From NCBI GenBank assembly GCA_951812825.1, contig OX638324.1, positions 442,459-506,458 of the forward strand: DNA of 64,000 nucleotides. The letters are read 5' to 3'. Below the pieces are notes generated by a model that was given only the letters and a program-made list of their open reading frames with translations, had not been told where the DNA came from and did not search any database. The position numbers were made by a program, and so were the translations under genes. Below are positions 25,219 to 47,514 of this stretch, one piece after another. The first letter of the stretch is position 1. Each line of letters begins with the position of its first letter. This DNA is from an uncultured Dehalococcoidia bacterium. Lineage in GTDB: Bacteria; Chloroflexota; Dehalococcoidia; Lucifugimonadales; GCA-2712585.

Positions 25219-25628
25219 GGATTCTATTGCGTACCTCCTGAGAAGCGCCTCATCGGCGAGCTCAGGCTAGTAATATCAATTACGCTTGGGCAGTCCCAGG
25301 CGTCATGACTGCTCAATTTAGGCCAATTGTTATATTCTCTCACTCCATCCATCCCCGCTGCCAGAAGAATAGACCTGAAATTTCCGTAGAGATTGAAGAC
25401 ACGTTCCATAGCAATGGGAGCAATCTGCAAGTTGCCCCGTTTCACAATCGGTCAATCATGGGACGAAACGGACCAACCCCATAGCTTATTTAGGACCCGT
25501 AATAGCTCCAAACAAAAAAAGTGGGCCTATGTTTCCTTCACGACGGACTTTCTGGTTGGAAGTTTTCCGCTGTATTGTCAAAAAGGATATGGTGGGTTTG
25601 CTTCTTTACGGGAAGCGGGCTTTCTAGG

Positions 25629-27599: not shown

Positions 27600-27972
27600 A
27601 TCGTCTGGACCTGGTTCCTATTCTATCCGCAAGATGCCATAGAAGAAATACGGATACATAGTGCAGTATTCCTCATTTGACCAACTTGAGAGCGTCGAAG
27701 ATTGGCGTCATATCCATGGGATTCACTTGACCCAACCCCCCTGTTGCTTGAACCGTGAGGAGACGACTCAAAGTGAGACAATATCATTCAGACCAGTCTC
27801 TTGACAGGCAGATAAAAAAGCTGGGAGTATTCACTGCACCTCTGTTGGGGTTCGACCTGATCTCCAGCAGTCGCAAATGTCGAAGCCGCGGAACTGGGTC
27901 AGATTCTTGTGAGACCCAATCTTTGGTTGCCCGACGCAAATCTGCAAATTTTATCCATCGCCGGCTGAGCAA

Positions 27973-29733
27973 TTGTCGCGGCTGGCTTGTAGGACGGAAG
28001 AAAGCCAGACTTTGGCATCAGAGAACGAAGGCGTCAGATACGAGCCGGATGAGAAGCCCCCATTCTGGGTAGCCTTGGGCGCAGGTCTGCAGGCGGCCAT
28101 GATCATCGTCGCGCCCGTGGTGCTGACCGTGGTCATAGTGGCCCGGATCGCCGATCAGCCCGAAAGTTATATCACCTGGGGCGTCTTCGCGGCGCTTCTT
28201 GTGAGCGGCATTACCACGGTGATGCAAGCGGTGCGGGTGGGCCGCGTTGGTGCGGGGCACGTCCTGATTATGGGCACGTCCGGGGCATTCATCGCCGTGT
28301 GCGTGGCGGCGCTGATGGAGGCCGGCCCAGCCACGATGGCGAGCCTCATCCTGGTGTCCTCGCTGATCCAGTTTCTGCTTGCCGCCCGGCTTTCGCTGCT
28401 GCGCCGAATATTCACTCCCGTGGTGTCGGGCACCGTGATAATGCTTATAGCCGCCACGGTAATGCCCGTCATTTTCGACACCCTTCATCAGGGGCCTGAG
28501 GGCGTTTCCAGCGCGGCGGCGCCGGTCTCGGCTCTTGCGACGCTGGTTGTAGTGGCGGTGCTGGTGCTGCGGGGCCCGCCGGCGTGGCGGCTGTGGTCGC
28601 CCGTCATCGGCATCATAATAGGCAGTGCAGTGGCAGCGCCCTTCGGGCTGTATGACGTTCAGGGGATTCTGGACGCGGCCTGGATAAGCGCACCCCTCGG
28701 CTCGTGGCCGGGGCTCGACATTACACCCGGCGTCGAGTTCTGGGCGCTTCTCCCCGCCTTTGTCGTTGTAACCCTCGTCGGAGCCATCGAGACGATCGGC
28801 GACGGCGTAGCCATTCAGCGAGTGTCGCGGCGCAAGCCCCGGGCAACGGACTTCCGGGTGGTGCAAGGGGCGCTCAACGCGGACGGGGTGGGCAATTTCC
28901 TATCGGGCGTCGGGGGGACCCTGCCGAACACCACCTATTCGTCCAGCATCTCCCTCGCCGAGGTCACCGGCATCGGAGCGCGGCGGGTGGGTATCATCAT
29001 CGGCATTATCTTCCTTGCGGTCGCCTTCTTCCCCAAATTCACTGCCCTGCTGATTGCCATCCCGCCTCCCGTAGCTGCCGCGTACCTGACGGTCCTGATA
29101 GGCATGCTGTTCCTGCAAGGGATGAAGATTGTCATCCAGGACGGCGTTGATCACAGAAAAGCCATAGTTGCGGGACTGGCCTTCTGGATCGGCACCGGAT
29201 TCCAGAACGGATGGATATTCCCGGACCTGCTGGGCGAGGGGTTTCTGGGCGTGCTCCTGGGCAACGGCATGACCTCCGGCGCCCTGGTCGCGGTCATCAT
29301 GATGGTGTTCCTGGAACTGACGGGACCCCGGCGAAAACAGTTGCGAGTTCCGCTGGATATGGACGCGCTGCCGCAACTGAGTGATTTCCTTAGCGGCTTT
29401 GCTAAACGTGCAGGGTGGAACGCAACGTCGTCGCAGCGTCTGGTATTGGTGGGAGAGGAAACCCTGACCAGCATGCTATTGGATGAAGCAGACGAGCCGA
29501 AACGGCTGATCGTCAGCGCCAGGGTCGGAGCTGGTGGGGCGGAGCTGGAGTTCGTGTCAGCGGCTGGAGAGGAGAACCTGGAGGACCGGCTTGCCTACCT
29601 GGGTGAGAAACCGGACACGGACGACGGCGAGGAAATATCTTTCCACCTGCTGCGCCACTACGCGTCCTCGGTACGTCACCAGAAATACCACGATGTAGAT
29701 ATAGTCACGGTGCAGGTTGAAGCGTCAAGATAA
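27973..29733 (+). CDS. NCS2 (xanthine/uracil permease) family transporter with ~130-aa C-terminal cytoplasmic extension
   Basis: NTTYSSSISLAEVTGIGARRVG and IPPPVAAAYLTVLIGMLFLQG match NCS2 motifs. The C-terminal LDMDALPQLSDFLSGFAKRAGWN...LVLVGEETLTSML...LEFVS resembles an RsbW/SpoIIAB-type (GHKL-like) domain. TTG start. Confidence 0.75.
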   Translation: MSRLACRTEESQTLASENEGVRYEPDEKPPFWVALGAGLQAAMIIVAPVVLTVVIVARIADQPESYITWGVFAALLVSGITTVMQAVRVGRVGAGHVLIMGTSGAFIAVCVAALMEAGPATMASLILVSSLIQFLLAARLSLLRRIFTPVVSGTVIMLIAATVMPVIFDTLHQGPEGVSSAAAPVSALATLVVVAVLVLRGPPAWRLWSPVIGIIIGSAVAAPFGLYDVQGILDAAWISAPLGSWPGLDITPGVEFWALLPAFVVVTLVGAIETIGDGVAIQRVSRRKPRATDFRVVQGALNADGVGNFLSGVGGTLPNTTYSSSISLAEVTGIGARRVGIIIGIIFLAVAFFPKFTALLIAIPPPVAAAYLTVLIGMLFLQGMKIVIQDGVDHRKAIVAGLAFWIGTGFQNGWIFPDLLGEGFLGVLLGNGMTSGALVAVIMMVFLELTGPRRKQLRVPLDMDALPQLSDFLSGFAKRAGWNATSSQRLVLVGEETLTSMLLDEADEPKRLIVSARVGAGGAELEFVSAAGEENLEDRLAYLGEKPDTDDGEEISFHLLRHYASSVRHQKYHDVDIVTVQVEASR

Positions 29734-30133
29734 CCTTCCCCACGAAATCTCAAAAGATCTCGAGCGACACAGTAAACGTGCCGACATCCTTAACGAACTT
29801 GGACTTTGCGGGCGTCTTACTGGCGACGTCGTGACACTGAATTCGTCCCGCTTGCGCAGCTTGGCAAACTCCTCGCAAATGCGCGTCTCGTCAATCTTCA
29901 ACCCCCGCGGACAGGGGGCGGCCCTTATTGATCCGCTACCAATATCAGGTCCAACCGGTATGTTGGGATTGTGGAATAACGTGACAATTAGAAAATAATC
30001 AACGCGAAACACCCACTAGCCACATCATCGGAAACGAACTCAAAGAAATCTAACTAGACAAGGCCTTAGCCACCGAATGCCACGTCCAAAGCCCGATGGA
30101 TTCCGTGCCTGAGAGAAATGGGCCAACGTATCC

Positions 30134-31399
30134 TGAGGTGGACCCGGAAAATCGGACAGGTAGCCAAGTGAGAGTCCTGCTCCTGGACTAGAGGCAGTAG
30201 AAGCTGTCGAGAAGGAGTGGGAGATGAGAAAAGGAAGAAGGAAACACAGCGAAGCCTTCAAGGCGAAGGTGGCCCTGGAGGCGGTGAGAGGGGAGGAGAC
30301 GGTGGCGGAGTTGGCGGCCCGGTACGAAGTGCACCCGGGGCAGATACAGGCAGGGAAGCAGGCGCTGATAGCGCGGCTGTACCAGGAGATAGGGCAGCTT
30401 TAGGTGGAGCGGGAATTTCTTGGCGGAGAGGTCCGGTCCATGAGTAGGGAGCGACGGCGGAAGATGGTGGACCAGGAACATCACACACTGTCCATAGTGC
30501 GGCAGTGCGCCCTCCTTGGGGTGAGCAGATCCAGCCTCTACTATCGGCCCAAAGGTGCTTCTGCGAAGGAGTTGTCCCTGATGAAGGAGATGGGACCGTC
30601 AGTACCTTGTGACTCCCTTCTACGGATCGAGACGAATGAAGGCTGGACTGAACCGACAAGGTATCCGGGTGAGCCGCAAACGAGTACAGAGGTTGATGGG
30701 ACTCATGGGGTTACAGGCCCTCTACCGGCGCCCTCGCACCAGCCGACGGGCGAAGGGGGAGCGGATCTATCCCTATCTGTTGAGGGATATCAAGGTCACG
30801 AAGCCCAATCTGGTCTGGGTGGCGGACATCACCTACATCCCCATGGCTCGTGGCTTCCTATACCTGGCGGCGGTGATGGACTACTACAGCCGCTACGTGT
30901 TGGCTTGGCGATTGTCCAATACCCTGGAGGCCGACTTCTGCGTTGAGGCGTTGACGGATGCATTGGAGCAAGGGAAGCCACAGATGTTCAACACCCACCA
31001 GGGCAGTCAGTTCACAAGCTTCGAGTTCATCCGGGTCCTACAGCAGCGTGGAGTGAATATCAGCATGGACGGGAAGGGAAGGTACCAGGACAACATCCTG
31101 GCGGAGCGGCTGTGGAGGACGGTGAAGTACGAGGAGGTGCATCTGAAAGCCTATGCTAACGGCGCCATCGCCAGGAGGGAGCTTAGTGTCTACTTCCGCT
31201 TCTACACCAACCAGAGGCCCCATCAGGCCCTGGGCTACCGCACCCCCGCGGCGCTGTTCCACACAGACCGGACGGCGCCGGAGAAGGAATCAAAGGAGAT
31301 GAGGTGCTCTATACGACCGATGTTTGTATCATGTGCAGGAGCGACGGGACCCTTACTTAAGTCTACCCTCACTCTGTCCATCTAATGGGGTCTACCTCA
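30134..31399 (+). mobile_element. IS3-family insertion sequence, copy A (1266 bp)
   Basis: TG...CA termini. IRL is TGAGGTGGACCCGGAAAATCGGACAG. The reverse complement of IRR is TGAGGTAGACCCCATTAGATGGACAG. The internal transposase frames are orfA-like and rve/DDE-like. Confidence 0.85.
30224..31385 (+). pseudogene. IS3-family transposase (OrfA/OrfB), disrupted
   Basis: OrfA is MRKGRRKHSEAFKAKVALEAVRGEETVAELAARYEVHPGQIQAGKQALIARLYQEIGQL followed by TAG (30401-30403). The same frame continues VEREFL...HTLSIVRQCALLGVSRSSLYYRP...LMKEM. A +1 shift near 30590 is then needed to reach DRQYLVTPFYGSRRM...VWVADITYI...YSRYVLAW (integrase core). Confidence 0.7.
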
Positions 31400-31579
31400 G
31401 AAAACCGCCTTGGCAAGCTTCTATTGGGCGAGTGGATCAGCGAGGCCGAATTCAACCATGAACTAGTGCATCTGCACTAACTCAGCCAAGCAATTGAGAA
31501 GGAGGTTGGCAAGACACCCGAAATTCTGAGACAATCCCTCCTTCACCGCTAGGTTTTTTCTATCTTAGGAGTGAGGTCG

Positions 31580-32359
31580 ATGGGTTACCGAGGCGCTCTG
31601 TCGGCATCCTTCATTTTGCAGTGGAAGCAGCTTCTCCCGAATTGGGGAAGCCTCTCTATATTCCTCATCTTTGTGCCTTATATGGCAATTGTGGGCTGGA
31701 TAGTTGGCAGGGCCTCGGACCCGGCTGTTCTGACCTTTGTAACCTTCGGCGCCATATTTTTCACCATCTGGCACCTAACAAGCTATCGAGCCGGGCATGC
31801 TCTTCAGAATGAATTCATGAACCAGACCGTTGATACAATGCTGATTGCCCCGACTCCCCTTTCAGTAATTGTACTGGGGAGGGTTCTCGCAATCGTAGCA
31901 GTCGCAGCCATCTCGACGCCAATCTCCTTCTTTGTTTTTGTTATGGTGGCCGATGGGCTCCCCCAGATTTCCAGTCCACTGATCTTTGCAGCATCTGTCC
32001 TCTTGGTCGTATTGGCGCTAATCACTGTCAGCTTCTTCTTCTCCCCGCTCTACGTGCTGAGCGGCGGTGGCAGGGGCTACGTGAACGCGGTGGCCCCTTT
32101 CGGGGTGGTATTCAGCGGATTTCTTTATCCGATAGACATTCTGCCGGCCTATCTGGTACCAATAGCCTGGATTTTCCCTACGTCCTGGGGTATGGACGCC
32201 GTAGTGCTGACCAGTCGGGGCGGCGGACTCACATCGGGAGTGCTCTTTGACTGGGCTATGGCTGGAGGTCTTTCGCTGGTTTGGCTATTCGCAACCCTGT
32301 GGATGTTCAGGGTCGTGGAGAACAGGGTGAGAAGCTCAGGAATATTGGGAAGAATATGA
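31580..32359 (+). CDS. ABC-2 type transporter permease
   Basis: ORF 31571-32359. ATG at 31580 follows an AGGAG RBS. It has six hydrophobic helices and is a paralog of 34967-35746 and 38951-39733. Confidence 0.75.
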   Translation: MGYRGALSASFILQWKQLLPNWGSLSIFLIFVPYMAIVGWIVGRASDPAVLTFVTFGAIFFTIWHLTSYRAGHALQNEFMNQTVDTMLIAPTPLSVIVLGRVLAIVAVAAISTPISFFVFVMVADGLPQISSPLIFAASVLLVVLALITVSFFFSPLYVLSGGGRGYVNAVAPFGVVFSGFLYPIDILPAYLVPIAWIFPTSWGMDAVVLTSRGGGLTSGVLFDWAMAGGLSLVWLFATLWMFRVVENRVRSSGILGRI

Positions 32360-33156
32360 TAGTGTCGGCGCTTTCAAACATGTGGCTCCAGACCTACCTG
32401 GGTTATAAAGCGCGATTCTACTGGTCATCTCCAACCGCATATATCCTCAACGCCGCGATGGTGCCGGTGTTCATGATGCTCGGGTTTGGGTTTCTGGCCG
32501 CCTTTGCAGTTGACGCTGATCTTACTCGCCACATCGTTGTCGGAATGTCCGTGAATGGAGCCGTGTTGTACCTGGTTAATGAGGTCACGCTGGGCTTTCA
32601 AGGCGAGAAGTGGACGGGCAACCTGACGACAATCTTCTTGCCCGCAGGGAACCGGATTGTCCATTACTTTGGGCGGGGCGTGGTACATTATCCACACGCC
32701 TTCTTCACCATTGCAGTAGGCTTGCTAGCTGGCGTCCTCATCCTGCACATCGACTTCTCCAACGCCAACTGGGGCCTACTGCTGGTGTCGGCGTTCTTAA
32801 CCGTATCCTCCATCACAATGTTCATGCTGCTAATGGGCGACCTAGTCCTGCTGCTCAAGAGTTATCAAAATCTGTACATGGCCTCTCTGGGCGTGATTGT
32901 TGGCCTGACTGGTGTGGTGGTGCCAGTTTCGGATTTGCCGTTGGCATTTGAGGCCATCGCACACATGCTTCCCATCTCACACGGGCTAGTGGCCTTTAGG
33001 GATTCTCTGGCTGGCGCCGGCTTTAGCGACGTAGTTGGCAACCTGCTTCTAGAGGCTGCCGTTGCCGCCGGCTATGCTCTGGCGGGCTATGTTGGCTTTG
33101 TGTTAGTGGAACGTCAACTGAAAATTCGGGGTACAATGGAGCAGCAGGACATTTAG
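32356..33156 (+). CDS. ABC-2 type transporter permease
   Basis: ATGA start/stop overlap with the upstream permease (32356-32359). It is a paralog of 34168-34965 and 38159-38950. Confidence 0.75.
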   Translation: MIVSALSNMWLQTYLGYKARFYWSSPTAYILNAAMVPVFMMLGFGFLAAFAVDADLTRHIVVGMSVNGAVLYLVNEVTLGFQGEKWTGNLTTIFLPAGNRIVHYFGRGVVHYPHAFFTIAVGLLAGVLILHIDFSNANWGLLLVSAFLTVSSITMFMLLMGDLVLLLKSYQNLYMASLGVIVGLTGVVVPVSDLPLAFEAIAHMLPISHGLVAFRDSLAGAGFSDVVGNLLLEAAVAAGYALAGYVGFVLVERQLKIRGTMEQQDI

Positions 33157-33198
33157 CCCGCATGAGGGGAAGTTGGTCGGCTTGAAAGGATTTGCGGT

Positions 33199-34155
33199 TT
33201 GAACGCCATAGAGTGTGAAAATCTGAGACGTGTCTACACGTCCCGTAGTTTGCTGGGTCAGTCTCGCTCCACCGTAGCTCTGGACGCCCTAGACCTCAGT
33301 GTGTCCCGGGGACAGGTCTTCGGCATCCTGGGGCCGAACGGCGCCGGCAAGACCACTGCCATCCGCATTCTCGCCACACTGCTTATTCCAACCAGTGGTC
33401 AGGCCAGCGTATTGGGATTTGACGTTGTGCAGCAGTCCAATGAGGTACGTAAACGGATAGGTCTTGTACTAGGCGGAGAGCGCGGGCTTTACGGCAGGCT
33501 TTCCGGGAGGGACAACCTGCGATATTTCGCTGCCCTCAATCAGATGAACCGCGGCGATGCACGTCGACGCATCTCCGAACTCTTGGAACTGGTTGGGCTG
33601 ACAGATCAGCCCAAGACCTTGGTGGAAGAGTATTCCAGGGGGATGAAGCAGAGACTCCATCTGGCCAGAGGCCTTCTCATGGATCCTGAAGTCCTGTTCC
33701 TAGACGAACCCACCATAGGCCTGGACCCTGTAGGAGCCCACGAAATCCGCCAGATGGTTCCCACTTTGGCCCGAGGCGGAACGACGGTGCTTCTGACCAC
33801 CCACTACATGTTCGAGGCCGATACCCTCTGCGATTCCATAGCCATCATCAACAAGGGAAGGCTCGCCGCACTGGGAACTCCAGCTGAAATCAAGGGCAGA
33901 TTCAGCAGGATCAAGATTACTCAGATTACTCTCAAGACACCTGCACCAGGCCTGAGGGATGAAATCGAGGCCCTCGAGGATGTACAGCGGGTTACCGAGG
34001 GAACTGAAGACGCCATGCAGCAGATGGTCGTTCACGGCCCGCCTGACTTAGATCTAAATGAATTTCTTCAGGACAAAGTTCCCGATGGAGAGATCGTGAG
34101 CTACTTAGTTAGAGATCCCACCCTAGAAGAGGCGTACATGAGCATCCTGAACTAG
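33199..34155 (+). CDS. ABC transporter ATP-binding protein (DrrA-like, ABC-2 subfamily)
   Basis: Walker [10 protein letters not shown], signature YSRGMKQRL, Walker B LFLDEPT, plus a C-terminal extension. TTG start. Confidence 0.9.
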   Translation: MNAIECENLRRVYTSRSLLGQSRSTVALDALDLSVSRGQVFGILGPNGAGKTTAIRILATLLIPTSGQASVLGFDVVQQSNEVRKRIGLVLGGERGLYGRLSGRDNLRYFAALNQMNRGDARRRISELLELVGLTDQPKTLVEEYSRGMKQRLHLARGLLMDPEVLFLDEPTIGLDPVGAHEIRQMVPTLARGGTTVLLTTHYMFEADTLCDSIAIINKGRLAALGTPAEIKGRFSRIKITQITLKTPAPGLRDEIEALEDVQRVTEGTEDAMQQMVVHGPPDLDLNEFLQDKVPDGEIVSYLVRDPTLEEAYMSILN

Positions 34156-34167
34156 GGGAACGCTGAC

Positions 34168-34965
34168 TCAACCCAGGATGCCCTCAAGGGTTCCTTGCCT
34201 TTTTGACCTTTTCTCGATTGCCCTGAAAATAAGGTATCCACATATCCCGTTGGCAGCTGCTATCAGTGCTTCCAGCACAAGCTCGTGACTTGCCGAGGAG
34301 AAAGCGGCTCCGTCAAGAGCAAACCTAAAGGCAAACAGCCCATGAGTGACCGGTAGACCTAGTCCAATCTGTTTTAGAACTACCGGAAGTTGGTCCACTG
34401 GCAAAATAGCCCCTGTCAATCCCAGGGTGAGTCCATTGGCGGCAGGGCCAATGATAAACCAGTCCCTGAAGGCGATGGCAAAAGTTCCCACCAGCATGGC
34501 GAATAGTACGCAGGAAACTGTGGTTACCAACACAGACGCTAAGGCCAATGCCCAGTTGATTCCGTGAAAGTCGAATCCCAGAAACACTGCAGCCGCCAGC
34601 AGCGAGCTCCCCAATGCCAGAAGGCCGTTGGGGAAATGGAAGATTCCCCGACTGAGGTAAACCAAGAGGCGGTTGCCAGGTGAGGCAAAATTCGCTGACA
34701 GCGTACCGAAGGCCCGGTCGTAGAACATTGTTTGAATGACTCCGCCCTGAGTGACTAATGCTATTGAGTAGACGCTGACGCCAATGATGTGAGACCTGGC
34801 TGCCTCGGGTCCTTGAGCGTATTGCCCCACTATCGCAAAGATCGCCATTAGAAACACGGGACCGAGAAATACATTTGAGACGTACCCCATGGGGTTGAGC
34901 CAAAGAAACAGCCCCCTATAGGAGAGCCAGCATTGAATTATGAAGTTCCTGAGATGCCCTGTCAT
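34168..34965 (-). CDS. ABC-2 type transporter permease
   Basis: ORF 34168-35040. The ATG at 34965 lies 1 nt after the upstream permease stop (34967). Polytopic membrane protein. Confidence 0.75.
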   Translation of the reverse strand: MTGHLRNFIIQCWLSYRGLFLWLNPMGYVSNVFLGPVFLMAIFAIVGQYAQGPEAARSHIIGVSVYSIALVTQGGVIQTMFYDRAFGTLSANFASPGNRLLVYLSRGIFHFPNGLLALGSSLLAAAVFLGFDFHGINWALALASVLVTTVSCVLFAMLVGTFAIAFRDWFIIGPAANGLTLGLTGAILPVDQLPVVLKQIGLGLPVTHGLFAFRFALDGAAFSSASHELVLEALIAAANGICGYLIFRAIEKRSKRQGTLEGILG

Positions 34966-34966
34966 T

Positions 34967-35746
34967 TTAGAACCTGCCCAGACTACCCGTAATTCGGACT
35001 CTTTCCTCCAACTTCTTGAACAGGAAGTAGGCGATGCCAAGGTATACGAGGGTCAAGCCGGCCGACGCACCCCAATTCAAAGCGTAGTCCAGAGAGGAGC
35101 CGCTTCCTCCCACTGAATCCACAACGGCTCTCATGGCCCACGATGTTGGAAGGCACAGGGCTGCCTGTTGCACGCCTTGAGGGAGCAAAGAGATTGGATG
35201 GAGAAATCCACTGAGCAGCACGCCAAGAGGAGTAATGGCGTTAAAGAAACCGGGCCTTCCACCTGCAATCACATAAAATGGAGCGAATATAAAGCCGCAT
35301 ACCAGGAGTGAGATTACTGCGACAACCAGGGAGGCGAGTAGAAGAACCAATTCCGATACGTCAAGGAGGCGTTGAGCTACTAGCACTACGGCTAGGAAGG
35401 CTACGGTCGCGGCCAGGAAACCGCCCACCAGAAAGCTCAAGGCCTTGCTCATCATCGCGATGATGAGCGGAGTTGGTGACAACAGGTTCTGCTCCAGAGT
35501 CCCGTCGAATATCTCTATGGCGACAAGCCATCCCATCCGCTGAATGAGTCCGTTCCAGAGGGTCACAAGGGCAGCCCCTATGGAGACATACGCTAGAACT
35601 TCGGGATTCTCTCCGACTTTGGCGACCCACGCGATAAGCGCCACCATGGGTACCGATTGCAGAACTACCGGAATGTAGTCCTTGGTCGCGTAAATGATCT
35701 TCCATTGAAGAGTGACAATTGTCCATTGTGCGTGAACAGCATTCAT
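34967..35746 (-). CDS. ABC-2 type transporter permease
   Basis: 259 aa, GGAG RBS before the ATG at 35746. First gene of a permease pair with no adjacent ATPase on its own strand. Confidence 0.75.
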   Translation of the reverse strand: MNAVHAQWTIVTLQWKIIYATKDYIPVVLQSVPMVALIAWVAKVGENPEVLAYVSIGAALVTLWNGLIQRMGWLVAIEIFDGTLEQNLLSPTPLIIAMMSKALSFLVGGFLAATVAFLAVVLVAQRLLDVSELVLLLASLVVAVISLLVCGFIFAPFYVIAGGRPGFFNAITPLGVLLSGFLHPISLLPQGVQQAALCLPTSWAMRAVVDSVGGSGSSLDYALNWGASAGLTLVYLGIAYFLFKKLEERVRITGSLGRF

Positions 35747-36189
35747 GACCGCTCCAATATATCACTATAGGGCCGGACCAGAGCAGCGGTGGCATTCTTG
35801 CCTACTCTCCGAGGCAAGTGCGGGAATACTGACTTCCCATGCTCATCTTCGCGGTGCCTTACTGGCTCGGACTCCATACCGAACTAGGCTTCACCAGAAT
35901 CAAGGTCCCCAAGAGTCTACCCGCCAACTGCTAGGGGCGGGCATCAGATCTAATCGGTTTCACCAGAGCGATGCCGGTTTGACTTGCCCGTGCTAGGCCA
36001 ATCAAGACGTTCAAGCTTCCGTTTAATCCTGAGAGCCTTTCAGCCAAGAACAAGTTTCGTTCAAGTTGAACGGACTCGATTGAAATCGTTAAACGAGATT
36101 TGCCCTACCTGGAGTCTTGTCGTGCTACGAGATGTGTATGAGAGTTGCTGTTTAAGGAAGATCCAAAGGTCGCTGGGGTAGAGGCTCCT

Positions 36190-36918
36190 TCAGCAATTCA
36201 GTAGTGCATGCAGTGCAATCTCAATTTGCTCGACGAATGACGCCTCGTGTCGAAGCTCCCTATCGATGTCTTTCCTACGAGGGCTGTCGCTGACGACGTG
36301 TATGCCGGCCGCTTGCACTCCCATTCGTTCGGCCACTGCGTACAGACAGGCAGTCTCAAGATCGATGGCGTAGTAACCCTCTCTGGCGAAGGCTTCCATC
36401 ATGGCATCGTTCTCAAGCATAAGACTATCGATGCTTATCATTGGACCTAAAGAGAATTCGGCGCTGTACGAATCCAGGGTTTTGCAAAGTCTTGAGTTGA
36501 GCGATTCCGATGAACAGGATAAGCCCTTGTCCGGGGAGTAGCTTCGAGTGCAGCCATCCAAACCGCATGCAGTTGGTGGTACCAGATAGCTGCCCACGCC
36601 CAACTCATCAGCGACTCCCCCCACATAGCCACAAGCTATGATTCTCTTCACTCCCAATAGCGCCGCGACTTCTGTGTACATTGCCACAATCGGTGCCCCG
36701 AAGAGCGGGTGACAGAAGGTGAGTGCTTTGCCCTTGAAGAGCCCTCTAAAAAACACCCCCGCTGGCTCAATGCTCTCAAAGAGGGCATTGAATTGGTCTT
36801 CCTGAAAGAGGTCTGGGTTTCCGAACAGCATAAGCATATCCGGCTCTAACGTTAGACTATCGTCACCCTTAGATAGCCAATTCACGGCAACCTGCCTGAT
36901 GTGTTCCTGCCAATCCAT
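36190..36918 (-). CDS. Nucleoside phosphorylase/nucleosidase-fold protein (PNP_UDP_1 / MTAN-like)
   Basis: FGAPIVAMYTEVAALLGVKRIIACGYVGGVADELGVGSYLVP and GPMISIDSL...YAIDLETACLYAVAERMGVQAAGIHVVSDSP align by eye with the E. coli Pfs segments [32 protein letters not shown] and GLIVSGDAF...AVEMEATAIAHVC...VVVRAISDVA. Confidence 0.5.
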   Translation of the reverse strand: MDWQEHIRQVAVNWLSKGDDSLTLEPDMLMLFGNPDLFQEDQFNALFESIEPAGVFFRGLFKGKALTFCHPLFGAPIVAMYTEVAALLGVKRIIACGYVGGVADELGVGSYLVPPTACGLDGCTRSYSPDKGLSCSSESLNSRLCKTLDSYSAEFSLGPMISIDSLMLENDAMMEAFAREGYYAIDLETACLYAVAERMGVQAAGIHVVSDSPRRKDIDRELRHEASFVEQIEIALHALLNC

Positions 36919-37125
36919 TCTTTTACCTAACCTTTACAAGCGATAAATCGAATTCTCCGGCCATTGCACGCCGATGTATAGACAGTGGGTTCTACCGGGA
37001 TTTCTCGAACCGCGTTCTTGAAGCCTATCTCACACGGGAGCTTTCCACAATTGATGGGCGAGATCCGATGAGGGAATGAGATTGACCAGACACAGTGCCC
37101 GAGGGCCTCGATTACGTATTGCGGA

Positions 37126-38148
37126 CTAGGCCGCTGCTCCCTTGGATCCCCTGCGAAGTATCGCGAGATAGCACTCCTCCAAGGTTGGATCTCTATGTGA
37201 GGGCGGCCCGGTTGCCACTTCTGAGAGCAGCTCCATGATTGGCTCATCGATATTCTCGTCGGAGTTGTCTATCTTGCTAAGGTGAATCGTTAGCCGATCG
37301 ATGCGTGGGTCGACGCCTTCAATATTGCGGTGGGGCTCTACTCTCAATACGCCATCCATCAAGGTCAGTTTGTCCAAAAGCGACTCGGATGGTGCCGATA
37401 CGCCAATTTCCATTATGGTTACGCCGCTTGCACTCCGCTTAATCTCGTCGGGCGTTCCCATGGCCATGAGCTTCCTGTTGATTATCGTCACGCGGTCGCA
37501 GATTTGCTCGGCTTCCGGCATATTGTGGGTGGTCACTAGAATTGTGACACCGGTGGATGCGAGTTCCGGGATCATCTTCCTGAAATCCAGGGCCGCCTCG
37601 GGGTCCAGGCCTATGGTGGGCTCATCCAGGAATATCACCGATGGTTCAGTGAGGAGTCCCCTTGCCAGGTGCAATCGCTGCTTCATTCCCCTGGAGTATT
37701 GCGACACGGGAGAATCGGCCCTGTCACTGAGTCCAAGCATTGACAGGTACTTGTTTGCCCGCTTCTTCGCCTCACTGGGTCTTAGCTGATTGAGACCGGC
37801 GAAGTAAAGGAGATTCTCCAGGCCTGTGAGTCTTCCGTACAGTCCCCTCTCTCCTCCCAAGACGAGGCCAATCCTCTGCCTGACTTTGTGGGCATCCTTG
37901 ACGACGTCCATCCCCAGGATCCGAGCTTCGCCTGATGTGGGAGTCAAAAGAGTGGAGAGGATTCTGACCACCGTGGTCTTTCCCGCCCCGTTTGGTCCGA
38001 GAAGTCCGAAGACGATTCCCTTGGGCACCTGGAGGTTCAGTCCTTCAATGGCGACTTTGCTCTGTATTCGTCCAAAGAGCTTACGGGAGCTGTAGACTCT
38101 TCTAAGGTCAACGCATTCTATGGGGAATTCCGTTACAGATGTTGCCAT
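37126..38148 (-). CDS. ABC transporter ATP-binding protein (DrrA-like, ABC-2 subfamily)
   Basis: Walker [10 protein letters not shown], signature YSRGMKQRL, Walker B IFLDEPT. Paralog of 33199-34155. Confidence 0.9.
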   Translation of the reverse strand: MATSVTEFPIECVDLRRVYSSRKLFGRIQSKVAIEGLNLQVPKGIVFGLLGPNGAGKTTVVRILSTLLTPTSGEARILGMDVVKDAHKVRQRIGLVLGGERGLYGRLTGLENLLYFAGLNQLRPSEAKKRANKYLSMLGLSDRADSPVSQYSRGMKQRLHLARGLLTEPSVIFLDEPTIGLDPEAALDFRKMIPELASTGVTILVTTHNMPEAEQICDRVTIINRKLMAMGTPDEIKRSASGVTIMEIGVSAPSESLLDKLTLMDGVLRVEPHRNIEGVDPRIDRLTIHLSKIDNSDENIDEPIMELLSEVATGPPSHRDPTLEECYLAILRRGSKGAAA

Positions 38149-38158
38149 GAGATTCCTC

Positions 38159-38950
38159 CTATGCCTCCTCCGTCATCTTGCCGCGCCGGCGCATCTGAAT
38201 TTCCATGAAGTGAAACATGAGGTAGCCGAAGACGGCGTAAACGAGGGCCACTAGCCCCTCCAATACCAAATTGCCATAGGGCACCGCGCCACCGCTGGCC
38301 GCCGCCCTTATGGACTCCAGTCCGTGGGTTAGGGGAAGGGCGTAACTGAGAAATTCGAGCTTCCACGGCAACAGGGCAATGGGGACTATCACGCCGGTGA
38401 GGGCCATCAGGAAGCCGTGGGCGACGACGGACAGGCTGATCCATTCGCGCATGATGATGGAAAAATTGGCGACAAAGAGGGCGAAGCAGGCGGTGGACGC
38501 CAGAATTGCCGCCACCGAAAGGGCCAATGCCGTCCAGTTGGCGTTGGACAGGTCCAGTCCCAAGAGGGCCCAAGCCCAGACTAATGCCGCTACGAAGCTC
38601 ATCAATCCGTTGGGAAGGTGGGCGAAGGCCCTGCTGAAATATAGGTATGGCCGGTTGATTGGCGACGCCATGGCTAGATGAAGGGTACCGAGGACTCTCT
38701 CGTAGTAGAAGCACTGGATGATGCCGCTGGTTAAGGTGGCCCCTATCCAGTAGCAGGACATCCCCAGAATGTAGGCTTCAATTTCCTGCGGGCTGCTCTG
38801 TACGAATTTTCCAAGGAGGGCGAACAGGGAGACCATCAGGAGAGGTCTGACTATTATGTTGGAGATGTAGGAGGTCCACGTCAACCAGCCAAACAGGGCC
38901 TTGTAGGACAGATACGAAACTCGCCATGTGCCAACCATAAGTTGCGACAT
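38159..38950 (-). CDS. ABC-2 type transporter permease
   Basis: 263 aa. Its ATG at 38950 directly abuts the upstream stop (38951-38953). Confidence 0.75.
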   Translation of the reverse strand: MSQLMVGTWRVSYLSYKALFGWLTWTSYISNIIVRPLLMVSLFALLGKFVQSSPQEIEAYILGMSCYWIGATLTSGIIQCFYYERVLGTLHLAMASPINRPYLYFSRAFAHLPNGLMSFVAALVWAWALLGLDLSNANWTALALSVAAILASTACFALFVANFSIIMREWISLSVVAHGFLMALTGVIVPIALLPWKLEFLSYALPLTHGLESIRAAASGGAVPYGNLVLEGLVALVYAVFGYLMFHFMEIQMRRRGKMTEEA

Positions 38951-39733
38951 CTACTGATCACTTCCCAGGGAAGCCATCTTACGGACCCGCCGTTCGATAA
39001 TCCCGAACAGAACCCAGGTGGCAAGTATATAGATGACGGTGATGGCCAGAGCCACCGCCCAGTGACCGGTGATCTGCCAAATGGAGTCATCAACTCTGGT
39101 CGATTCGTAGAGCGCAATCATTCCCCAGGAGGTGGGGAGGACTCTGGAGAGGGCCTCAAGCCCCACCGGAAAGATGTCGATTGGGTAGAGGAAGCCGCTC
39201 AAGACGATTCCGCCGAGGCTGAAACCGTTCAGAAAGCCGCCTCTTCCCCCCATCAACACCATTATGGGAGAAAAGATGAAGCAGCATACCATGACGCCTA
39301 TCGTAGTAATGACCAGGGAGATGAATACCAGAAGGACGTTTCCTAGTTCAGGAACACCGGAGTTAACGAGTACTCCTACGCCAAGCATCAGTCCGGCTCC
39401 AAGAATGCTCAGGAGCAGGAGTGAGAAGGACTTTCCCAAAGTGATCAGCGTGAGGGATGTCTTCGAAACGATGGCCAGATCCAGGGTGCCCATCAAGAGT
39501 TCACCGCTGACGGACCATCCAATTCTGAAGAAAGCCTGGTTCCAGACGATAAAGAGAAATACCCCTGCGAGCACATACGTTACGGTAGTGACGTCGGGCC
39601 CGCGACTGCCAATCCAGGAGAACATCAAGACGATTGGCAGAGATCCCAGCAGCAACGACACGAGGACGCTTGTGCTGAAAGCATTTTTCCATTCAGCCTT
39701 GGCTGCTGCTGTTAAAGCGTAGAGTATTCCCAT
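38951..39733 (-). CDS. ABC-2 type transporter permease (start codon abuts IS copy B)
   Basis: ORF 38951-39748. The ATG at 39731-39733 is the first base triplet outside the IS end (39734). The 5 extra N-terminal codons in the ORF track are IS sequence. Confidence 0.7.
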   Translation of the reverse strand: MGILYALTAAAKAEWKNAFSTSVLVSLLLGSLPIVLMFSWIGSRGPDVTTVTYVLAGVFLFIVWNQAFFRIGWSVSGELLMGTLDLAIVSKTSLTLITLGKSFSLLLLSILGAGLMLGVGVLVNSGVPELGNVLLVFISLVITTIGVMVCCFIFSPIMVLMGGRGGFLNGFSLGGIVLSGFLYPIDIFPVGLEALSRVLPTSWGMIALYESTRVDDSIWQITGHWAVALAITVIYILATWVLFGIIERRVRKMASLGSDQ

Positions 39734-40999
39734 TGAGGTAGACCCCATTAGATGGACAGAGTGAGGGTAGACTTAAGTAAGGGTCCCGTCGCTCCTGCAC
39801 ATGATACAAACATCGGTCGTATAGAGCACCTCATCTCCTTTGATTCCTTCTCCGGCGCCGTCCGGTCTGTGTGGAACAGCGCCGCGGGGGTGCGGTAGCC
39901 CAGGGCCTGATGGGGCCTCTGGTTGGTGTAGAAGCGGAAGTAGACACTAAGCTCCCTCCTGGCGATGGCGCCGTTAGCATAGGCTTTCAGATGCACCTCC
40001 TCGTACTTCACCGTCCTCCACAGCCGCTCCGCCAGGATGTTGTCCTGGTACCTTCCCTTCCCGTCCATGCTGATATTCACTCCACGCTGCTGTAGGACCC
40101 GGATGAACTCGAAGCTTGTGAACTGACTGCCCTGGTGGGTGTTGAACATCTGTGGCTTCCCTTGCTCCAATGCATCCGTCAACGCCTCAACGCAGAAGTC
40201 GGCCTCCAGGGTATTGGACAATCGCCAAGCCAACACGTAGCGGCTGTAGTAGTCCATCACCGCCGCCAGGTATAGGAAGCCACGAGCCATGGGGATGTAG
40301 GTGATGTCCGCCACCCAGACCAGATTGGGCTTCGTGACCTTGATATCCCTCAACAGATAGGGATAGATCCGCTCCCCCTTCGCCCGTCGGCTGGTGCGAG
40401 GGCGCCGGTAGAGGGCCTGTAACCCCATGAGTCCCATCAACCTCTGTACTCGTTTGCGGCTCACCCGGATACCTTGTCGGTTCAGTCCAGCCTTCATTCG
40501 TCTCGATCCGTAGAAGGGAGTCACAAGGTACTGACGGTCCCATCTCCTTCATCAGGGACAACTCCTTCGCAGAAGCACCTTTGGGCCGATAGTAGAGGCT
40601 GGATCTGCTCACCCCAAGGAGGGCGCACTGCCGCACTATGGACAGTGTGTGATGTTCCTGGTCCACCATCTTCCGCCGTCGCTCCCTACTCATGGACCGG
40701 ACCTCTCCGCCAAGAAATTCCCGCTCCACCTAAAGCTGCCCTATCTCCTGGTACAGCCGCGCTATCAGCGCCTGCTTCCCTGCCTGTATCTGCCCCGGGT
40801 GCACTTCGTACCGGGCCGCCAACTCCGCCACCGTCTCCTCCCCTCTCACCGCCTCCAGGGCCACCTTCGCCTTGAAGGCTTCGCTGTGTTTCCTTCTTCC
40901 TTTTCTCATCTCCCACTCCTTCTCGACAGCTTCTACTGCCTCTAGTCCAGGAGCAGGACTCTCACTTGGCTACCTGTCCGATTTTCCGGGTCCACCTCA
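39734..40999 (-). mobile_element. IS3-family insertion sequence, copy B (inverted, apparently identical to copy A)
   Basis: It mirrors 30134-31399. The 258-, 180-, 133-, 98-, 76- and 74-aa ORF-track translations are identical, and so is the shared part of a seventh pair that diverges only outside the IS end. Confidence 0.85.
39748..40909 (-). pseudogene. IS3-family transposase (OrfA/OrfB), same lesions as copy A
   Basis: Mirror of 30224-31385, with the same in-frame TAG and the same +1 frame break. Confidence 0.7.
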
Positions 41000-41353
41000 G
41001 GTTTCGACTGTCCAGCCGCCATTTTCCCGCAGAAGTCTTGTCGCTTCAACGCCGGTCCGGATAGGCAGCTGAAACTTGTCTACGTAGCTCTCGAGGTATT
41101 CAGCGAACTCGGATCGGGTGGGAAACAGGGACGTGTGAACTGGAAATGGCATTCCAGGGAGTGAACTGAGGTGTTTGCCGGTGTGCAATCTCGGACTGTC
41201 GTAGACTTGTCCCCACATCCATCCGGCATGCTCTCCCCGTTCGAGTACGACGTTGGAGATGCGCCGCGCGGCCAACTGCTGAGAGACTGCAAGCCCGCCT
41301 GGCCCTCCTCCCACGATGGCGATCCCGAAACGCTCAACCGGCAATTCGTACAA
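41000..41353 (-). pseudogene. Flavin-containing monooxygenase (FMO/CzcO-like) N-terminal fragment, truncated by IS copy B
   Basis: MYELPVERFGIAIVGGGPGGLAVSQQLAARR...HTGKHLSSLPGMPFP... is an FAD GxGxxG fold. The reading frame runs to the exact IS junction, and the IS terminal TGA supplies the stop. Confidence 0.75.
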
Positions 41354-41471
41354 ACTGCCTCACTCCACTCGCACGCCTCATCGCGCGGCCCCTGAGGTGA
41401 GGCCCGTAAGCAACCGGCGCCCGACAAAGCCCACTAACGCCATCGCCGCCTTCCGGGACTTGTTCTACAAC

Positions 41472-43133
41472 CTAGATGGTCAACTCTCTGATAATCTCCG
41501 CGCCGTGGTCGTCCCCGTCGGGCACACCCAGCAGGTTGTCCTTGAACTGGATGTCCCTCACCGCTTGAGCCAACTTAGCTTCGAGGCGCCTGGAAGACCA
41601 GCCCTTTGCCATTATCTGGACAAGAGGAGGATGAAGACGGCCGGACCGTCTCTTCTCCTCGTACTCGATATTCAGGCGGGCCAACTGGTCGTCGATGGCC
41701 CGTCCCAGGCGAATCGCCGACTCATCAGCCACCGGGAGTCGTTTGAGCTCCAATTGCAAGTTGTAACGGGAGGTCTCAGGGTGTCCCACAGCACGATAAT
41801 ACTCTATGCCAATTCCCACCGAACTCTGCGCAGCTTCTACAGCCTGTATCAGCTGTGATACGTGGAGCTTTTCCCCCTCCAGGTTCACCATGTCCCGGCC
41901 CTTTCGCATGAACTCGAGCAGGGGCGTCCTGCCATGGAACCCCGCCACTCTTACTATGTCGTTGATGTCGTACCTGTAGAGGCCATTGGGAGAGGTGAGC
42001 ACAATATAGTAGCTTTCACCGTTTTCCAATTGGCTCACGGTCAGGACGTGAGGGCGGGTACTCTCTATGTCGCCCTCCGGAATAAATTCGTAGAAGTTGG
42101 CGGCAACGGCCAGGATTCCTCTGCAACCCTCGTCTTCAGTAGGGAGGGTGACATAGGCCTCGCTGGAAAGGTATCCGATGTCTCGGAACGGCGTCTCGGT
42201 GCGAAACCAAGGTCTTAGCCTGTCCACCGTCGACCCGACGCTGCCGCCCTTCCAACAGCCCACCAAAGCCAGGTCAGGCCAGTATTCTTTGGGCCGCAGC
42301 GAACCCGTTCCGGCCACGATGCTTTCCAGTTCCCGCGCCCGCTTAGGATTTGGTTTCAGGAATGGGCTGATTTGCCGCCGCACCTCCGAAGATATGTCGA
42401 AATCTTTCGAGACGGCACCGTCGTGAATGTCCTCATATAACCGGTCATGGTGGTTGTCCGCAGTCATTGCCAGCCGCAGTATCGTGCTGGGATTGGGCGT
42501 CGCAATCAAGGAAAGCCTTTGTTCTATGGCAAACCGCATTATGGCATAGTACTTCGCTTCGAAATCCTTGATAGCAAACACAGGGTACGGAACGGCGTAA
42601 CGACGCCGCAAGACCCAAGACGCATTCTTGTATATGTAGCCTGAAGCTGATCCGAAGGGAATGCCACCGTCTGTGCATCCTTCCACGGCAGGGCTGACGA
42701 TTACCAATGCTTTGTGATCGAGAGTCTTGGGATGGTCCACCAGGCACCGGTAAAGCCAGAGTCGCGACAGGCTCTTGGCCGTATCTCCGACGGACCGGTT
42801 TACTGGAATGAACTTCGGCTGGCCGGCTGACCCGCTCGTCAATGCAAACAGGTATGGGTCTTCGCTGGTCAGGACGCGCCGTTCACCCTCCTTGAGCCGA
42901 TCCACCCATGGACGAAAGTCCTCATAGTCCCCGACAGGCACACCGTCTCGGTAGTCCTGTACCGAGTTCATCCTCGAAAATCCATGCTGCCGACCATATG
43001 CCGTATCCTGGTTGGATTTCAGGATACGTTGAAGGAGGTCGCGTTGGACTTCCTCTGGATGCTTCGTCGTGTGCTCAAATCTTCGCCAAGACCAGCGCCC
43101 CTTGAGAGCCAACAATTGTGAGACCGCAGACAT
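41472..43133 (-). CDS. GH3-family protein (ANL-superfamily acyl-acid amido synthetase-like)
   Basis: 553 aa: FEHTTKHPEEVQRDLLQRIL...NSVQDYRDGVPVGDYEDFRPWVDR...LFALTSGSAGQPKFIPV, the conserved bacterial GH3 N-terminus with its adenylation P-loop-like TSGS..G.PK. Confidence 0.75.
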   Translation of the reverse strand: MSAVSQLLALKGRWSWRRFEHTTKHPEEVQRDLLQRILKSNQDTAYGRQHGFSRMNSVQDYRDGVPVGDYEDFRPWVDRLKEGERRVLTSEDPYLFALTSGSAGQPKFIPVNRSVGDTAKSLSRLWLYRCLVDHPKTLDHKALVIVSPAVEGCTDGGIPFGSASGYIYKNASWVLRRRYAVPYPVFAIKDFEAKYYAIMRFAIEQRLSLIATPNPSTILRLAMTADNHHDRLYEDIHDGAVSKDFDISSEVRRQISPFLKPNPKRARELESIVAGTGSLRPKEYWPDLALVGCWKGGSVGSTVDRLRPWFRTETPFRDIGYLSSEAYVTLPTEDEGCRGILAVAANFYEFIPEGDIESTRPHVLTVSQLENGESYYIVLTSPNGLYRYDINDIVRVAGFHGRTPLLEFMRKGRDMVNLEGEKLHVSQLIQAVEAAQSSVGIGIEYYRAVGHPETSRYNLQLELKRLPVADESAIRLGRAIDDQLARLNIEYEEKRRSGRLHPPLVQIMAKGWSSRRLEAKLAQAVRDIQFKDNLLGVPDGDDHGAEIIRELTI

Positions 43134-43135
43134 GA

Positions 43136-45004: not shown

Positions 45005-45093
45005 CCCTTCGAAAGTTGTCGTTGCGGCTGGATGCCCTGGTGGCGTTTAGGGCTTCATCCTGATGGAAGTATACACCCCTTTTCTAGGTTACC

Positions 45094-45960: not shown

Positions 45961-45966
45961 GGGATG

Positions 45967-47251: not shown

Positions 47252-47283
47252 AACTGCGTTCGCCATTTTATCACACCTTTCTC

Positions 47284-47311: not shown

Positions 47312-47329
47312 CTTAGTGGCCGACCACAC

Positions 47330-47505: not shown

Positions 47506-47514
47506 CCCATAACA

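Follow-up and report, generated by a model that had tools for sequence, protein, structure and literature searches.

Identical, inactivated IS3-family copies around an ABC-2 exporter module in an uncultured Dehalococcoidia bacterium: a plausible immobilised relic of a compound-transposon-like unit

Within the window, as we call the whole 64-kb stretch of DNA analysed here, which lies in a 2.47-Mb contig of an uncultured Dehalococcoidia bacterium, two inverted copies of one insertion sequence (IS) enclose a nine-gene ABC-2 exporter module, and both copies carry the same inactivating lesions. With about even confidence we favour the explanation that an IS3-family unit resembling a compound transposon has become immobilised and persists here as a relic. 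Its two arms are the following:

30134 to 31399, plus strand: IS copy 1, IS3 family, 1266 bp, with IRL at 30134 and IRR at 31399
39734 to 40999, minus strand: IS copy 2, with IRR at 39734 and IRL at 40999, the exact mirror of copy 1

Over their full length the two arms match each other's reverse complement without a single mismatch, where both this identity and the linkage across the repeats are those of the assembly consensus, and the mirror rule x+y=71133 given by the initial annotation is true for both of them. Its description of the IRL ends (the 5' side of the transposase) as pointing outward and of the IRR ends as facing the cargo was likewise borne out by the terminal repeats. The perfect repeat comprises 1268 nt, as the exact match extends 2 nt past the IRL ends (CC in both); a figure of 1273 nt results from tolerant extension, in which the outer bases agree at 5 of 7 positions. 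Elements belonging to the IS3 family carry terminal inverted repeats of the form 5'-TG...CA-3' and are 1.2-1.55 kb long (PMC6211511), and both features are found here, with TGAGGTGGACCC...GGGTCTACCTCA over 1266 bp. The inverted repeats behind the TG...CA termini are imperfect, TGAGGT(G/A)GACCC...GGACAG, and the end sequence is also given as TGAGGTRGACCC. The orfB remnant retains HTH_21, rve and rve_3 domains (PF00665 rve at 71 bits), and the conceptually repaired OrfAB reaches 291.7 bits against NF033516 transpos_IS3 (cut-off 160), so that the homologous rve (DDE) core of the family is present on the repaired reading frame. Two copies of one IS with usable outer ends thus surround passenger DNA, which is the architecture of a compound transposon. 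The outer IRL 27-mer is the same as in IS relatives of Dehalococcoidia metagenome-assembled genomes (MAGs).

The cargo between the arms (31400-39733, 8,334 bp) contains nine genes:

31580 to 32359, plus strand: ABC-2 permease A1, PF01061 at 29.4 bits, intact and colinear with the related locus L003
32299 to 33156, plus strand: ABC-2 permease B1, PF01061 at 28.5 bits
33199 to 34155, plus strand: DrrA-like ABC ATPase 1, PF00005; PF13732 DrrA1-3_C below threshold at 23.5 bits (cut-off 27.4)
34168 to 34965, minus strand: ABC-2 permease B2, PF01061 at 36.4 bits; the A2/B2 pair is without an ATPase of its own
34967 to 35746, minus strand: ABC-2 permease A2, PF01061 at 20.8 and PF12698 at 25.7 bits, both under the cut-off
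36190 to 36918, minus strand: divergent nucleoside-phosphorylase-fold protein (PNP_UDP_1), PF01048 at 78 bits
37126 to 38148, minus strand: DrrA-like ABC ATPase 2, PF00005, motifs present
38159 to 38950, minus strand: ABC-2 permease B3, PF01061 at 44.8 bits
38951 to 39733, minus strand: ABC-2 permease A3, PF01061 at 22.7 and PF12698 at 31.3 bits, both under the cut-off

The profile matches agree with the initial annotation, which had read three ABC-2 pairs, two DrrA-like ATPases and a nucleoside-phosphorylase fold into the 8.3 kb. The gathering score of PF01061 (26.9 bits; the cut-off of PF12698 is 31.6) is passed by four of the six permeases, namely A1, B1, B2 and B3. Both ATPases score 100-105 bits with PF00005 and have the Walker A, signature, Walker B and H-loop motifs, so that ABC2_membrane permeases are accompanied by cognate ABC_tran ATPases with intact motifs. 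The module consists of two complete sets of permease A, permease B and DrrA-like ATPase, a third A/B pair and the PNP-fold enzyme. It resembles DrrAB and the mycobacterial DrrABC type, as each set pairs one DrrA-like ATPase with two ABC-2 membrane subunits that differ from each other. Unlike these systems, it combines three paralogous A/B pairs with two ATPases and also contains a PNP-fold gene, and its scores stay under the curated cut-offs, so that there is no equivalog-level match to DrrA or DrrB: the best NCBIfam match of the ATPases, TIGR01188 drrA, gives 266.8 bits (cut-off 312.45), and TIGR00025 of the DrrB family gives 22.9 bits (cut-off 146.9). For the PNP-fold protein every NCBIfam match is under its cut-off; its best PDB relatives are UP/DeoD PNP (E 1e-13), and its homologues at 64-80% identity (L004, L006, L014-L017) occur without ABC-2 linkage and hence carry no synteny information. 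Neither the PNP protein nor the permeases correspond to a PADLOC defence model. From the PLSDB plasmids the cargo is absent, with matches to generic ATPase motifs only, and its composition is like that of the flanks.

The initial annotation had proposed to look for the cargo without the IS at another locus, and L003 is such a locus: its positions 7184-15521 correspond to 39735-31399 of the window at 95.3% identity, with all nine genes and no IS. L003 (20.7 kb) shares no other similarity with the window, the flanks of the cargo, among them a HAD/methyltransferase flank in L003, being unrelated, and its homology to the cargo breaks at most 2 nt from both inner IS termini. Further members of the cluster are found on several other contigs at 92-98.5% identity. 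All nine cargo genes are intact, and the codon differences between them and L003 are 228 synonymous and 78 non-synonymous; the module genes are under purifying selection. The nine-gene module is an accessory block in a Chloroflexi/Dehalococcoidia-like lineage, and, judged by its sequence, a movable one. The direction of the change, L003 being ancestral versus the IS having been lost in L003, we infer from the majority of IS-free relatives.

Outside the arms, the unit, located between a xanthine/uracil permease gene and a flavin monooxygenase gene, borders on these two regions:

29734 to 30133, no strand assigned: left outer flank, 400 bp, without recognisable gene or homologue
41000 to 41353, minus strand: truncated flavin-containing monooxygenase (FMO), the N-terminal 118 of about 346 codons, cut by the IRL of IS copy 2

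The left flank gave no Pfam match and no similarity to any locus fetched, and core synteny with the relative L019 stops at 29726; therefore, the IS unit is located in an accessory region. On the right side the FMO remnant matches positions 3-111 of 346 of NF040505 ArsO. Its relatives P0064 and P0070 run on beyond the truncation point (...GGWTVET), and the homology of L018 to the right flank ends exactly at 41000, where the FMO sequence of L018 goes past the insertion point. Among the loci retrieved there was neither another copy of the whole unit nor a complete empty site. Since the L003 homology stops at the inner IS ends and the right outer end truncates the FMO gene, the IS ends are real relocation breakpoints. 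The remainder of the FMO gene is absent from the whole window, including the far side of the unit, and joining the outer flanks in silico with 0-5 bases dropped restored no gene, the FMO frame staying open for only about 25 codons of the left flank. The block of HO/MLE, GH3 and truncated FMO genes is 94% identical in L018, where an IS630-type gene stands next to it, and the surroundings of the unit contain integrase and recombinase genes.

No target-site duplication (TSD) of 2-5 bp was found for any pairing of the four junctions, whether for the single IS, the composite, an inside-out unit or an inversion by recombination or replicative transposition. The single copies are bordered by TCC/GAA and ACC/ATG, and the composite lacks a direct repeat of 3-5 bp (GTATCC, unit, GGTTTC), so that no transposition footprint is left. 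Relatives of the IS have a TSD of 3 bp in 5 of 31 complete elements (L031, L035, L049, L071, L088) and of 4 bp in L012, where about 0.5 duplications are expected by chance among the 31. The junctions already contradict the assumption that two unrelated simple IS insertions hit a cluster which had always been resident at this locus, and we regard it as highly improbable: both insertions are intergenic or at a boundary and left the cargo genes unharmed, as it would require, but neither copy has a target duplication of its own, the outer flanks share no homology with those of the IS-free cargo in L003, and the truncated FMO gene should continue into the cargo, which it does not. A mosaic that arose by homologous recombination between dispersed IS copies is the chief rival and would lead to the IS-cargo-IS structure as well. 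Here, several IS copies would have existed in the genome, and the cargo would have come to lie between unrelated flanks through inversion, deletion or double crossover between copies, either inside the chromosome or with incoming DNA, and without any compound transposition. Four junctions that are orphans under every TSD pairing are what crossover between IS copies would leave, the surrounding region is itself a mosaic of mobile blocks (the L018 block, integrase, recombinase), and the 100% identity of the copies would likewise follow from recombination or gene conversion between them. However, this route would take a larger number of steps, no fewer than four IS insertions plus two rearrangements, no reciprocal junction was seen, and the window contains no further IS copy, either full or partial, so that we consider it rather unlikely.

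The initial annotation had further suggested that the arrangement is able to move an efflux module. This is not supported, as the transposase genes are destroyed, which was deduced from alignment with the intact relatives L124, L126, L078 and L031 and from translations (coordinates are those of copy 1):

30224 to 30403, plus strand: orfA remnant, 59 codons, with a premature TAG at 30401-30403 and a 66-nt in-frame deletion after about 30361
30404 to 31385, plus strand: orfB remnant, split over two frames

Besides the deletion and the stop codon, an extra A at about 30414-30415 joins the frames of orfA and orfB, and an extra G within 30592-30594 shifts the frame of the orfB remnant a second time. 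The fifth lesion hits the catalytic centre, where the DDE motif FNTDQGSQ has CAC (His) at 30996-30998 in place of GAC (Asp); five relatives have GAC or GAT for this second DDE aspartate within FN(T/N)DQGSQ, so that the triad is not intact here. In L124, L126 and L031 a 95-aa orfA is followed by orfB in the -1 frame, and it is this layout for programmed -1 frameshifting that the deletion, the TAG and the two extra bases have broken. Since both arms are identical pseudogenes and neither encodes a functional transposase, the unit cannot move by itself. The terminal inverted repeats still resemble those of intact relatives, and mobilisation in trans is therefore conceivable. No other rve gene of the same type and no other transposase source is present in the window. 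A scan of GTDB genomes with the IRL 27-mer returned relatives at 77-86% only, in five Dehalococcoidia and two Alphaproteobacteria MAGs, and a scan of JGI metagenomes for the IS returned at least 120 loci, the best about 74% identical; thus, neither other IS copies of the source genome nor an active master copy were found by these scans.

It seems decidedly unlikely, therefore, that the IS pair is an active compound transposon that moved recently as a unit and still keeps the efflux module mobile. The architecture is right, the arms are 100% identical with intact inverted-repeat ends, and the cargo is also known from a different context, its breakpoints coinciding with the IS ends. Against it are the five lesions shared by both copies, the lack of a TSD although relatives have 3-bp ones, the second half of the FMO gene missing from the far side, and the preference of IS3-family transposases, which work by copy-out-paste-in, for acting in cis (PMC6350997). 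Moreover, the right junction of truncated FMO and IRL is common to two other metagenome strains with 99% identity of the flank and is therefore not new. The conclusion of the initial annotation that near-perfect identity implies recent transposition is also unsafe, because a dead element cannot copy itself and because gene conversion or polishing yields 100% as well.

The short-read assemblies of these two strains break 97 nt inside the IS, which shows that the repeat is hard for assemblers, and 3 of these 97 positions at the IS 5' end differ between strains, yet 0 of 1266 differ between the copies of the window. Both observations could point to an assembly or polishing artefact, in which a wrong path through the IS mixed cargo and flanks of different strains or consensus polishing homogenised the copies. 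But the window belongs to a 2.47-Mb contig, implying long reads that easily span 1.3 kb, no frameshifts occur elsewhere in the window, where all nine genes of the cargo as well as those of the flanks are intact, and the composition of the cargo fits that of the flanks, which makes an artefact very unlikely.

Normally, the chemistry of the IS3 family pairs IRL with IRR. For the favoured relic of a compound-transposon-like unit, the most parsimonious history would have three steps. One IS copy would have been inserted at each side of the module with the IRR ends inward; IS, cargo and IS would then have transposed on the two outer IRL ends into an FMO gene of a variable region that borders tRNA-Glu/tRNA-Gln, with a transposase supplied in trans or active before the IS decayed; and a later loss of DNA beside the left IS would have removed the FMO remainder together with the target duplication. 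The deletion is invoked rather than observed, and the use of IRL with IRL is putative for this element. The complete identity of the arms may stem from a late copy in trans, gene conversion or consensus polishing. We think it unlikely, taken as one joint reading, that the arms are a MITE-like, non-autonomous IS3 derivative whose identity is maintained by gene conversion and which a related active IS mobilises in trans via IRL-IRL pairing, so that the pair would be a dedicated shuttle, and the source of the promoter or of translation coupling, for a lineage-specific triple DrrABC-like exporter and nucleoside-phosphorylase module moving from one accessory region of Dehalococcoidia genomes to another.

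Tn10/IS10 and Tn5/IS50, classical compound transposons whose arms are inverted, are built from IS4-family elements of the cut-and-paste type; at least one of their transposases works, and they duplicate 9 bp of the target. They share with the unit the inverted copies of one IS around passenger genes and the equivalent outer ends (here IRL/IRL), whereas here the IS belongs to the copy-out-paste-in IS3 family, both copies are dead and there is no duplication. The megacircle of Burkholderia thailandensis is a 210-kb composite transposon with IS2-like elements of the IS3 family at both passenger ends and mobility via the chemistry of the IS ends; its model is of the IS26 type, with direct orientation, one active transposase and a one-IS circle that inserts beside an existing copy (PMC6350997). 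In contrast, the copies here are inverted and inactive, and the unit is known from assembled sequence alone. For ISApl1-mcr-1-ISApl1 (Tn6330) of the IS30 family, birth and demise of the composite are reported, with decay via loss of IS copies (PMC5821093). There, the same cargo likewise occurs with two IS in one genome and none in others and the vehicle decays after delivery, but in our case the IS copies persist and their transposase genes are destroyed.

The relocation also affects how the cargo is probably expressed. The ATG of A3 (39731-39733) directly adjoins the IRR end of IS copy 2, and therefore the native upstream region is lost. In the public gene call (P0271) A3 starts 5 codons inside the IS; all cluster members on the other contigs start A3 with MGILY, and the IS-derived extension occurs only in the record of the window. 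Having lost its own upstream region, the A3-B3-ATPase2-PNP-A2-B2 operon is probably expressed by read-through from IS copy 2; the orfB stop of this copy is 15 nt ahead of the A3 ATG. Promoter and terminator scans of the unit stayed at chance level, and Rfam gave no regulatory RNA in it. For annotation, it is of note that in one operon the first permease gene now depends on upstream sequence that stems from the IS.

The current understanding of transposition and of ABC-2 exporters is unchanged by these results. They give reason for caution, as one cannot conclude from two perfectly identical IS copies that transposition was recent or is still going on; here both copies are demonstrably dead. 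For uncultured Chloroflexi, the unit offers a clean natural case of an accessory transporter module that was moved between neighbourhoods and then fixed as its IS vehicle decayed.

A repeat search within 28-43 kb returned a single large inverted repeat, and direct comparison of 30134-31399 with the reverse complement of 39734-40999 gave 0 differences over 1266 bp each, which bears out the mirror-image copies described in the initial annotation. The identity runs two bases further (CC) on the outer side and ends immediately on the inner side; additional IS copies or fragments were not found in the 64-kb window. The element starts with TG, ends with CA and has imperfect terminal inverted repeats (TGAGGTGGACCC...GGACAG and TGAGGTAGACCC...GGACAG). 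Its 3' two-thirds encode HTH_21, rve and rve_3, the OrfAB product after conceptual repair matches the NCBIfam model transpos_IS3 with 291.7 bits (cut-off 160), and relatives on plasmids are annotated as IS3 family transposase. Reading direction confirms that IRL, the end on the transposase 5' side, faces outward at 30134 and 40999 and IRR inward at 31399 and 39734. Domain matches likewise confirm a cargo of three ABC-2 permease pairs, two DrrA-like ATPases and a nucleoside-phosphorylase-fold (PNP) gene, and the initial description was right on all factual points. Outside both IRL ends, 30127-30133 and 41000-41006 show a 5/7 mirror match (CGTATCC vs CGAAACC, adjacent CC included), which could be chance, target preference or a conversion tract slightly overrunning the IS end.

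Components of the IS-flanked unit (A1-A3 and B1-B3, permeases)
30134-31399, + strand, IS copy 1
31580-34155, + strand, A1-B1-ATPase1 operon
39733-34168, - strand, A3-B3-ATPase2-PNP-A2-B2 operon
39734-40999, - strand, IS copy 2

In intact reference relatives from metagenomes (L124/L126, L078 and L031; 1321-1334 bp) orfA has 95 codons, orfB lies in the -1 frame and the motif FNTDQGSQFTS is present. In a multiple alignment with these relatives five lesions were read, all of which are shared by both copies.

Lesions of the IS (positions in copy 1)
after about 30361, 66-nt in-frame deletion in orfA
30401-30403, AAG to TAG, stop in orfA
about 30414-30415, extra A, frameshift
30592-30594 (G run), extra G, frameshift
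30996-30998, CAC (His) for GAC (Asp), second DDE residue

Frameshifts are absent from the nine cargo genes and from the genes of the flanks, so the lesions are not general assembly errors. The nearest genomic relatives of the IS, in five Dehalococcoidia MAGs (77-86% identity), are decayed or truncated themselves. Because the lesions are shared, either the element was duplicated after its death, for which its own transposase was not responsible, or the copies were homogenised by gene conversion or consensus polishing. For IS3-family transposases cis-preference and a mechanism of the copy-out-paste-in type have been reported (PMC6350997). The proposal that the unit is able to move is not supported, as both copies are pseudogenes with five lesions and the unit lacks a transposase and a footprint and ends in IRL on both sides; in its present state it is not an active transposon, whatever its route of origin.

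At the left outer junction (J1, 30133|30134) the IS adjoins a 400-bp flank without a recognisable gene, on the downstream side of a conserved xanthine/uracil permease gene. The relative locus L019 is syntenic (84-86% identity, 17795-29726) up to the end of this gene, and the DNA to the right of the gene is therefore accessory. At the inner junctions (J2, 31399|31400; J3, 39733|39734) cargo homology to L003, a contig of another metagenome, starts and stops at most 2 nt from the IS inner termini, and at J3 the IS end is contiguous with the A3 ATG. The right outer flank (J4, 40999|41000) comprises the initial 118 codons of a flavin monooxygenase of the ArsO type (FMO; model positions 3-111 of 346). 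Its close homologues P0064 and P0070 extend beyond ...GGWTVET into GAARY...VVVATG. Similarity to locus L018, which is 94% identical across the HO-like/MR_MLE and GH3 genes upstream, breaks off precisely at 41000. The FMO remainder was not found anywhere in the window, and joining the outer flanks in silico did not restore the gene. Direct repeats of 2-5 bp were sought in all junction pairings (single IS, composite and inversion patterns), and none fit. Repeats of 3-4 bp are described for the IS3 family (PMC6211511), in agreement with IS relatives that are complete with both flanks, where 5/31 show a 3-bp and 1/31 a 4-bp duplication (chance expectation about 0.5). Since the relatives do show duplications, their absence at the window's junctions is meaningful.

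Loci L001 and L002 from two other metagenomes (99.0% and 99.3% identity to the right flank) share the junction of truncated FMO and IRL, and both end 97 nt into the IS with 3 differences from the window there. The right junction, being common to both, is therefore older than the split between these strains. Two pseudogene copies of such age, evolving independently, would be expected to differ, but 0 differences were observed; possibly one copy was derived late from the other, or gene conversion or polishing removed the divergence. Near-perfect identity had been taken as a sign of recent transposition, which is not a safe conclusion, because a dead element cannot copy itself and the right junction predates strain divergence.

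The 8,334 bp between the arms hold nine genes, arranged as two convergent operons. Each of the six membrane proteins has a match to ABC2_membrane (PF01061); four reach the gathering score, and A2 (20.8 bits) and A3 (22.7 bits) fall below it. Both ATPases match ABC_tran, retain Walker A, signature, Walker B and H-loop, and have drrA as top NCBIfam model (266.8 bits, under the cut-off of 312); the ninth protein belongs, as a divergent member, to PNP_UDP_1. The cargo thus resembles DrrAB(C)-type ABC-2 exporters, yet stays under equivalog thresholds. Identities are 31-33% among A-type permeases, 31-35% among B-type permeases, about 22% between A and B and 51% between the two ATPases, and the two ATPase genes make up inverted repeat I2 (131 nt, 72%); permeases and ATPases are old paralogues rather than recent duplicates. 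The cargo was not found on known plasmids and did not match known defence systems, nor did the PNP-fold protein (36190-36918, - strand) have a PADLOC match. Homologues of this protein in L004, L006 and L014-L017 (64-80% identity) are solitary, in highly variable neighbourhoods without adjoining ABC-2 genes, next to nSTAND, AbiEii, toxin-antitoxin, restriction-modification and transposase genes.

The search for the cargo without IS at another locus succeeded in L003, where it is present entirely between unrelated flanks (7184-15521 vs window 39735-31399; 95.3% identity, 387 mismatches, 3 gaps). There it is bordered by TIR, CD-NTase_C and a further IS to one side and by a HAD hydrolase and methyltransferases to the other, and the rest of L003 (20.7 kb) showed no similarity to the window beyond the cargo. 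All 9/9 genes are intact and colinear, and codon differences are 228 synonymous vs 78 non-synonymous; judged from this pattern, the cargo is functional in both lineages. A 500-bp patch at about 37.7-38.2 kb (ATPase2 5' part/B3 3' end) is 86.8% identical to L003, against 92-98% elsewhere in the cargo, and may have arisen by recombination or gene conversion. Since L003 carries by the cargo a different IS-like element (4454-6024; 23-nt terminal inverted repeats, HTH/rve-like protein of 498 aa) as well as the C-terminal part of a methyltransferase (6409-6786), paralogous to the methyltransferase genes across the cargo, the cargo may be an insertion there too. The proteins of the window itself fall on an NCBI/ENA contig of 2,472,204 bp. 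Cargo-protein homologues (92-98.5% identity) lie on several further contigs (69,152, 24,450, 41,908, 5,494 and 3,386 bp, among others), and A3 starts with MGILY in all homologues on these. For the public A3 call P0271 (265 aa) an ATG within the IS was taken as the start (39734-39748, - strand; MGSTS|MGILY), giving a hybrid ORF over the IS boundary. Because this 5-codon IS-derived extension occurs only in the window's record, the IS-free cargo is suggested to be the common state and the IS-flanked one derived.

At three independent junctions an IS terminus falls within 2 nt of a homology breakpoint, and as this coincidence cannot be chance, the IS copies were the agents of the rearrangement that placed the module here. 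The shortest history would require four events, namely two IS insertions flanking the module, a transposition that brought the IS-cargo-IS block into the FMO gene, and an IS-adjacent deletion taking away the FMO remainder and the duplication. We regard such an origin by compound transposition, dependent on the IS ends, as an even bet. Homologous recombination between dispersed IS copies, which is rather improbable, explains the four 'orphan' junctions just as well and would also account for the sequence identity of the copies, but requires more events; misassembly, a pair of simple insertions and a transposon that is still active together take up most of the remainder. Of the compound transposon claimed initially, the inverted IS3 arms around an exporter cargo stand. 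The IS ends mark relocation breakpoints, but a target-site duplication flanking the unit is absent and the transposase is dead.

Elsewhere, the window contains a complete bacterial 16S rRNA gene (8215-9727, + strand, 1511 bits) and no 23S or 5S match, and the rRNA genes are therefore unlinked. By its IS relatives and protein names the organism probably belongs to Chloroflexota/Dehalococcoidia, and the 16S gene could serve for its placement. The region 45758-48723 is a hot spot for integrative elements.

Features of the integration hot spot
45758-46924, serine-recombinase gene, Resolvase catalytic domain missing
47175-47251, - strand, tRNA-Glu
47330-47403, + strand, tRNA-Gln
47569-48723, tyrosine integrase

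Contig L004 has the same tRNA-Glu (94%) adjoining a full serine recombinase, and shares 64-67% identity with the window's island-type genes at 50.2-55.6 kb. The Haem_oxygenas_2/MR_MLE fusion, GH3 and monooxygenase fragment at 41354-45128 (94% identical to L018 6125-9903) look like a separately mobile, putative biosynthetic unit; in L018 the block adjoins an IS630-type (DDE_3) gene, and the ABC-F gene there is just 72% identical to that of the window.

In its arrangement the unit is like compound transposons of the Tn10/Tn5 type, except that its arms belong to the IS3 family. For this family a composite that has direct repeats and a circular intermediate is already known (PMC6350997), and cargo with and without IS arms follows the pattern outlined for ISApl1-mcr-1 (PMC5821093). 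The unit is of local interest only. A consensus promoter scan was uninformative. With its native upstream region gone and the A3 ATG 15 nt past the stop of the orfB remnant, the A3 operon is likely to depend for its expression on transcription leaving IS copy 2.
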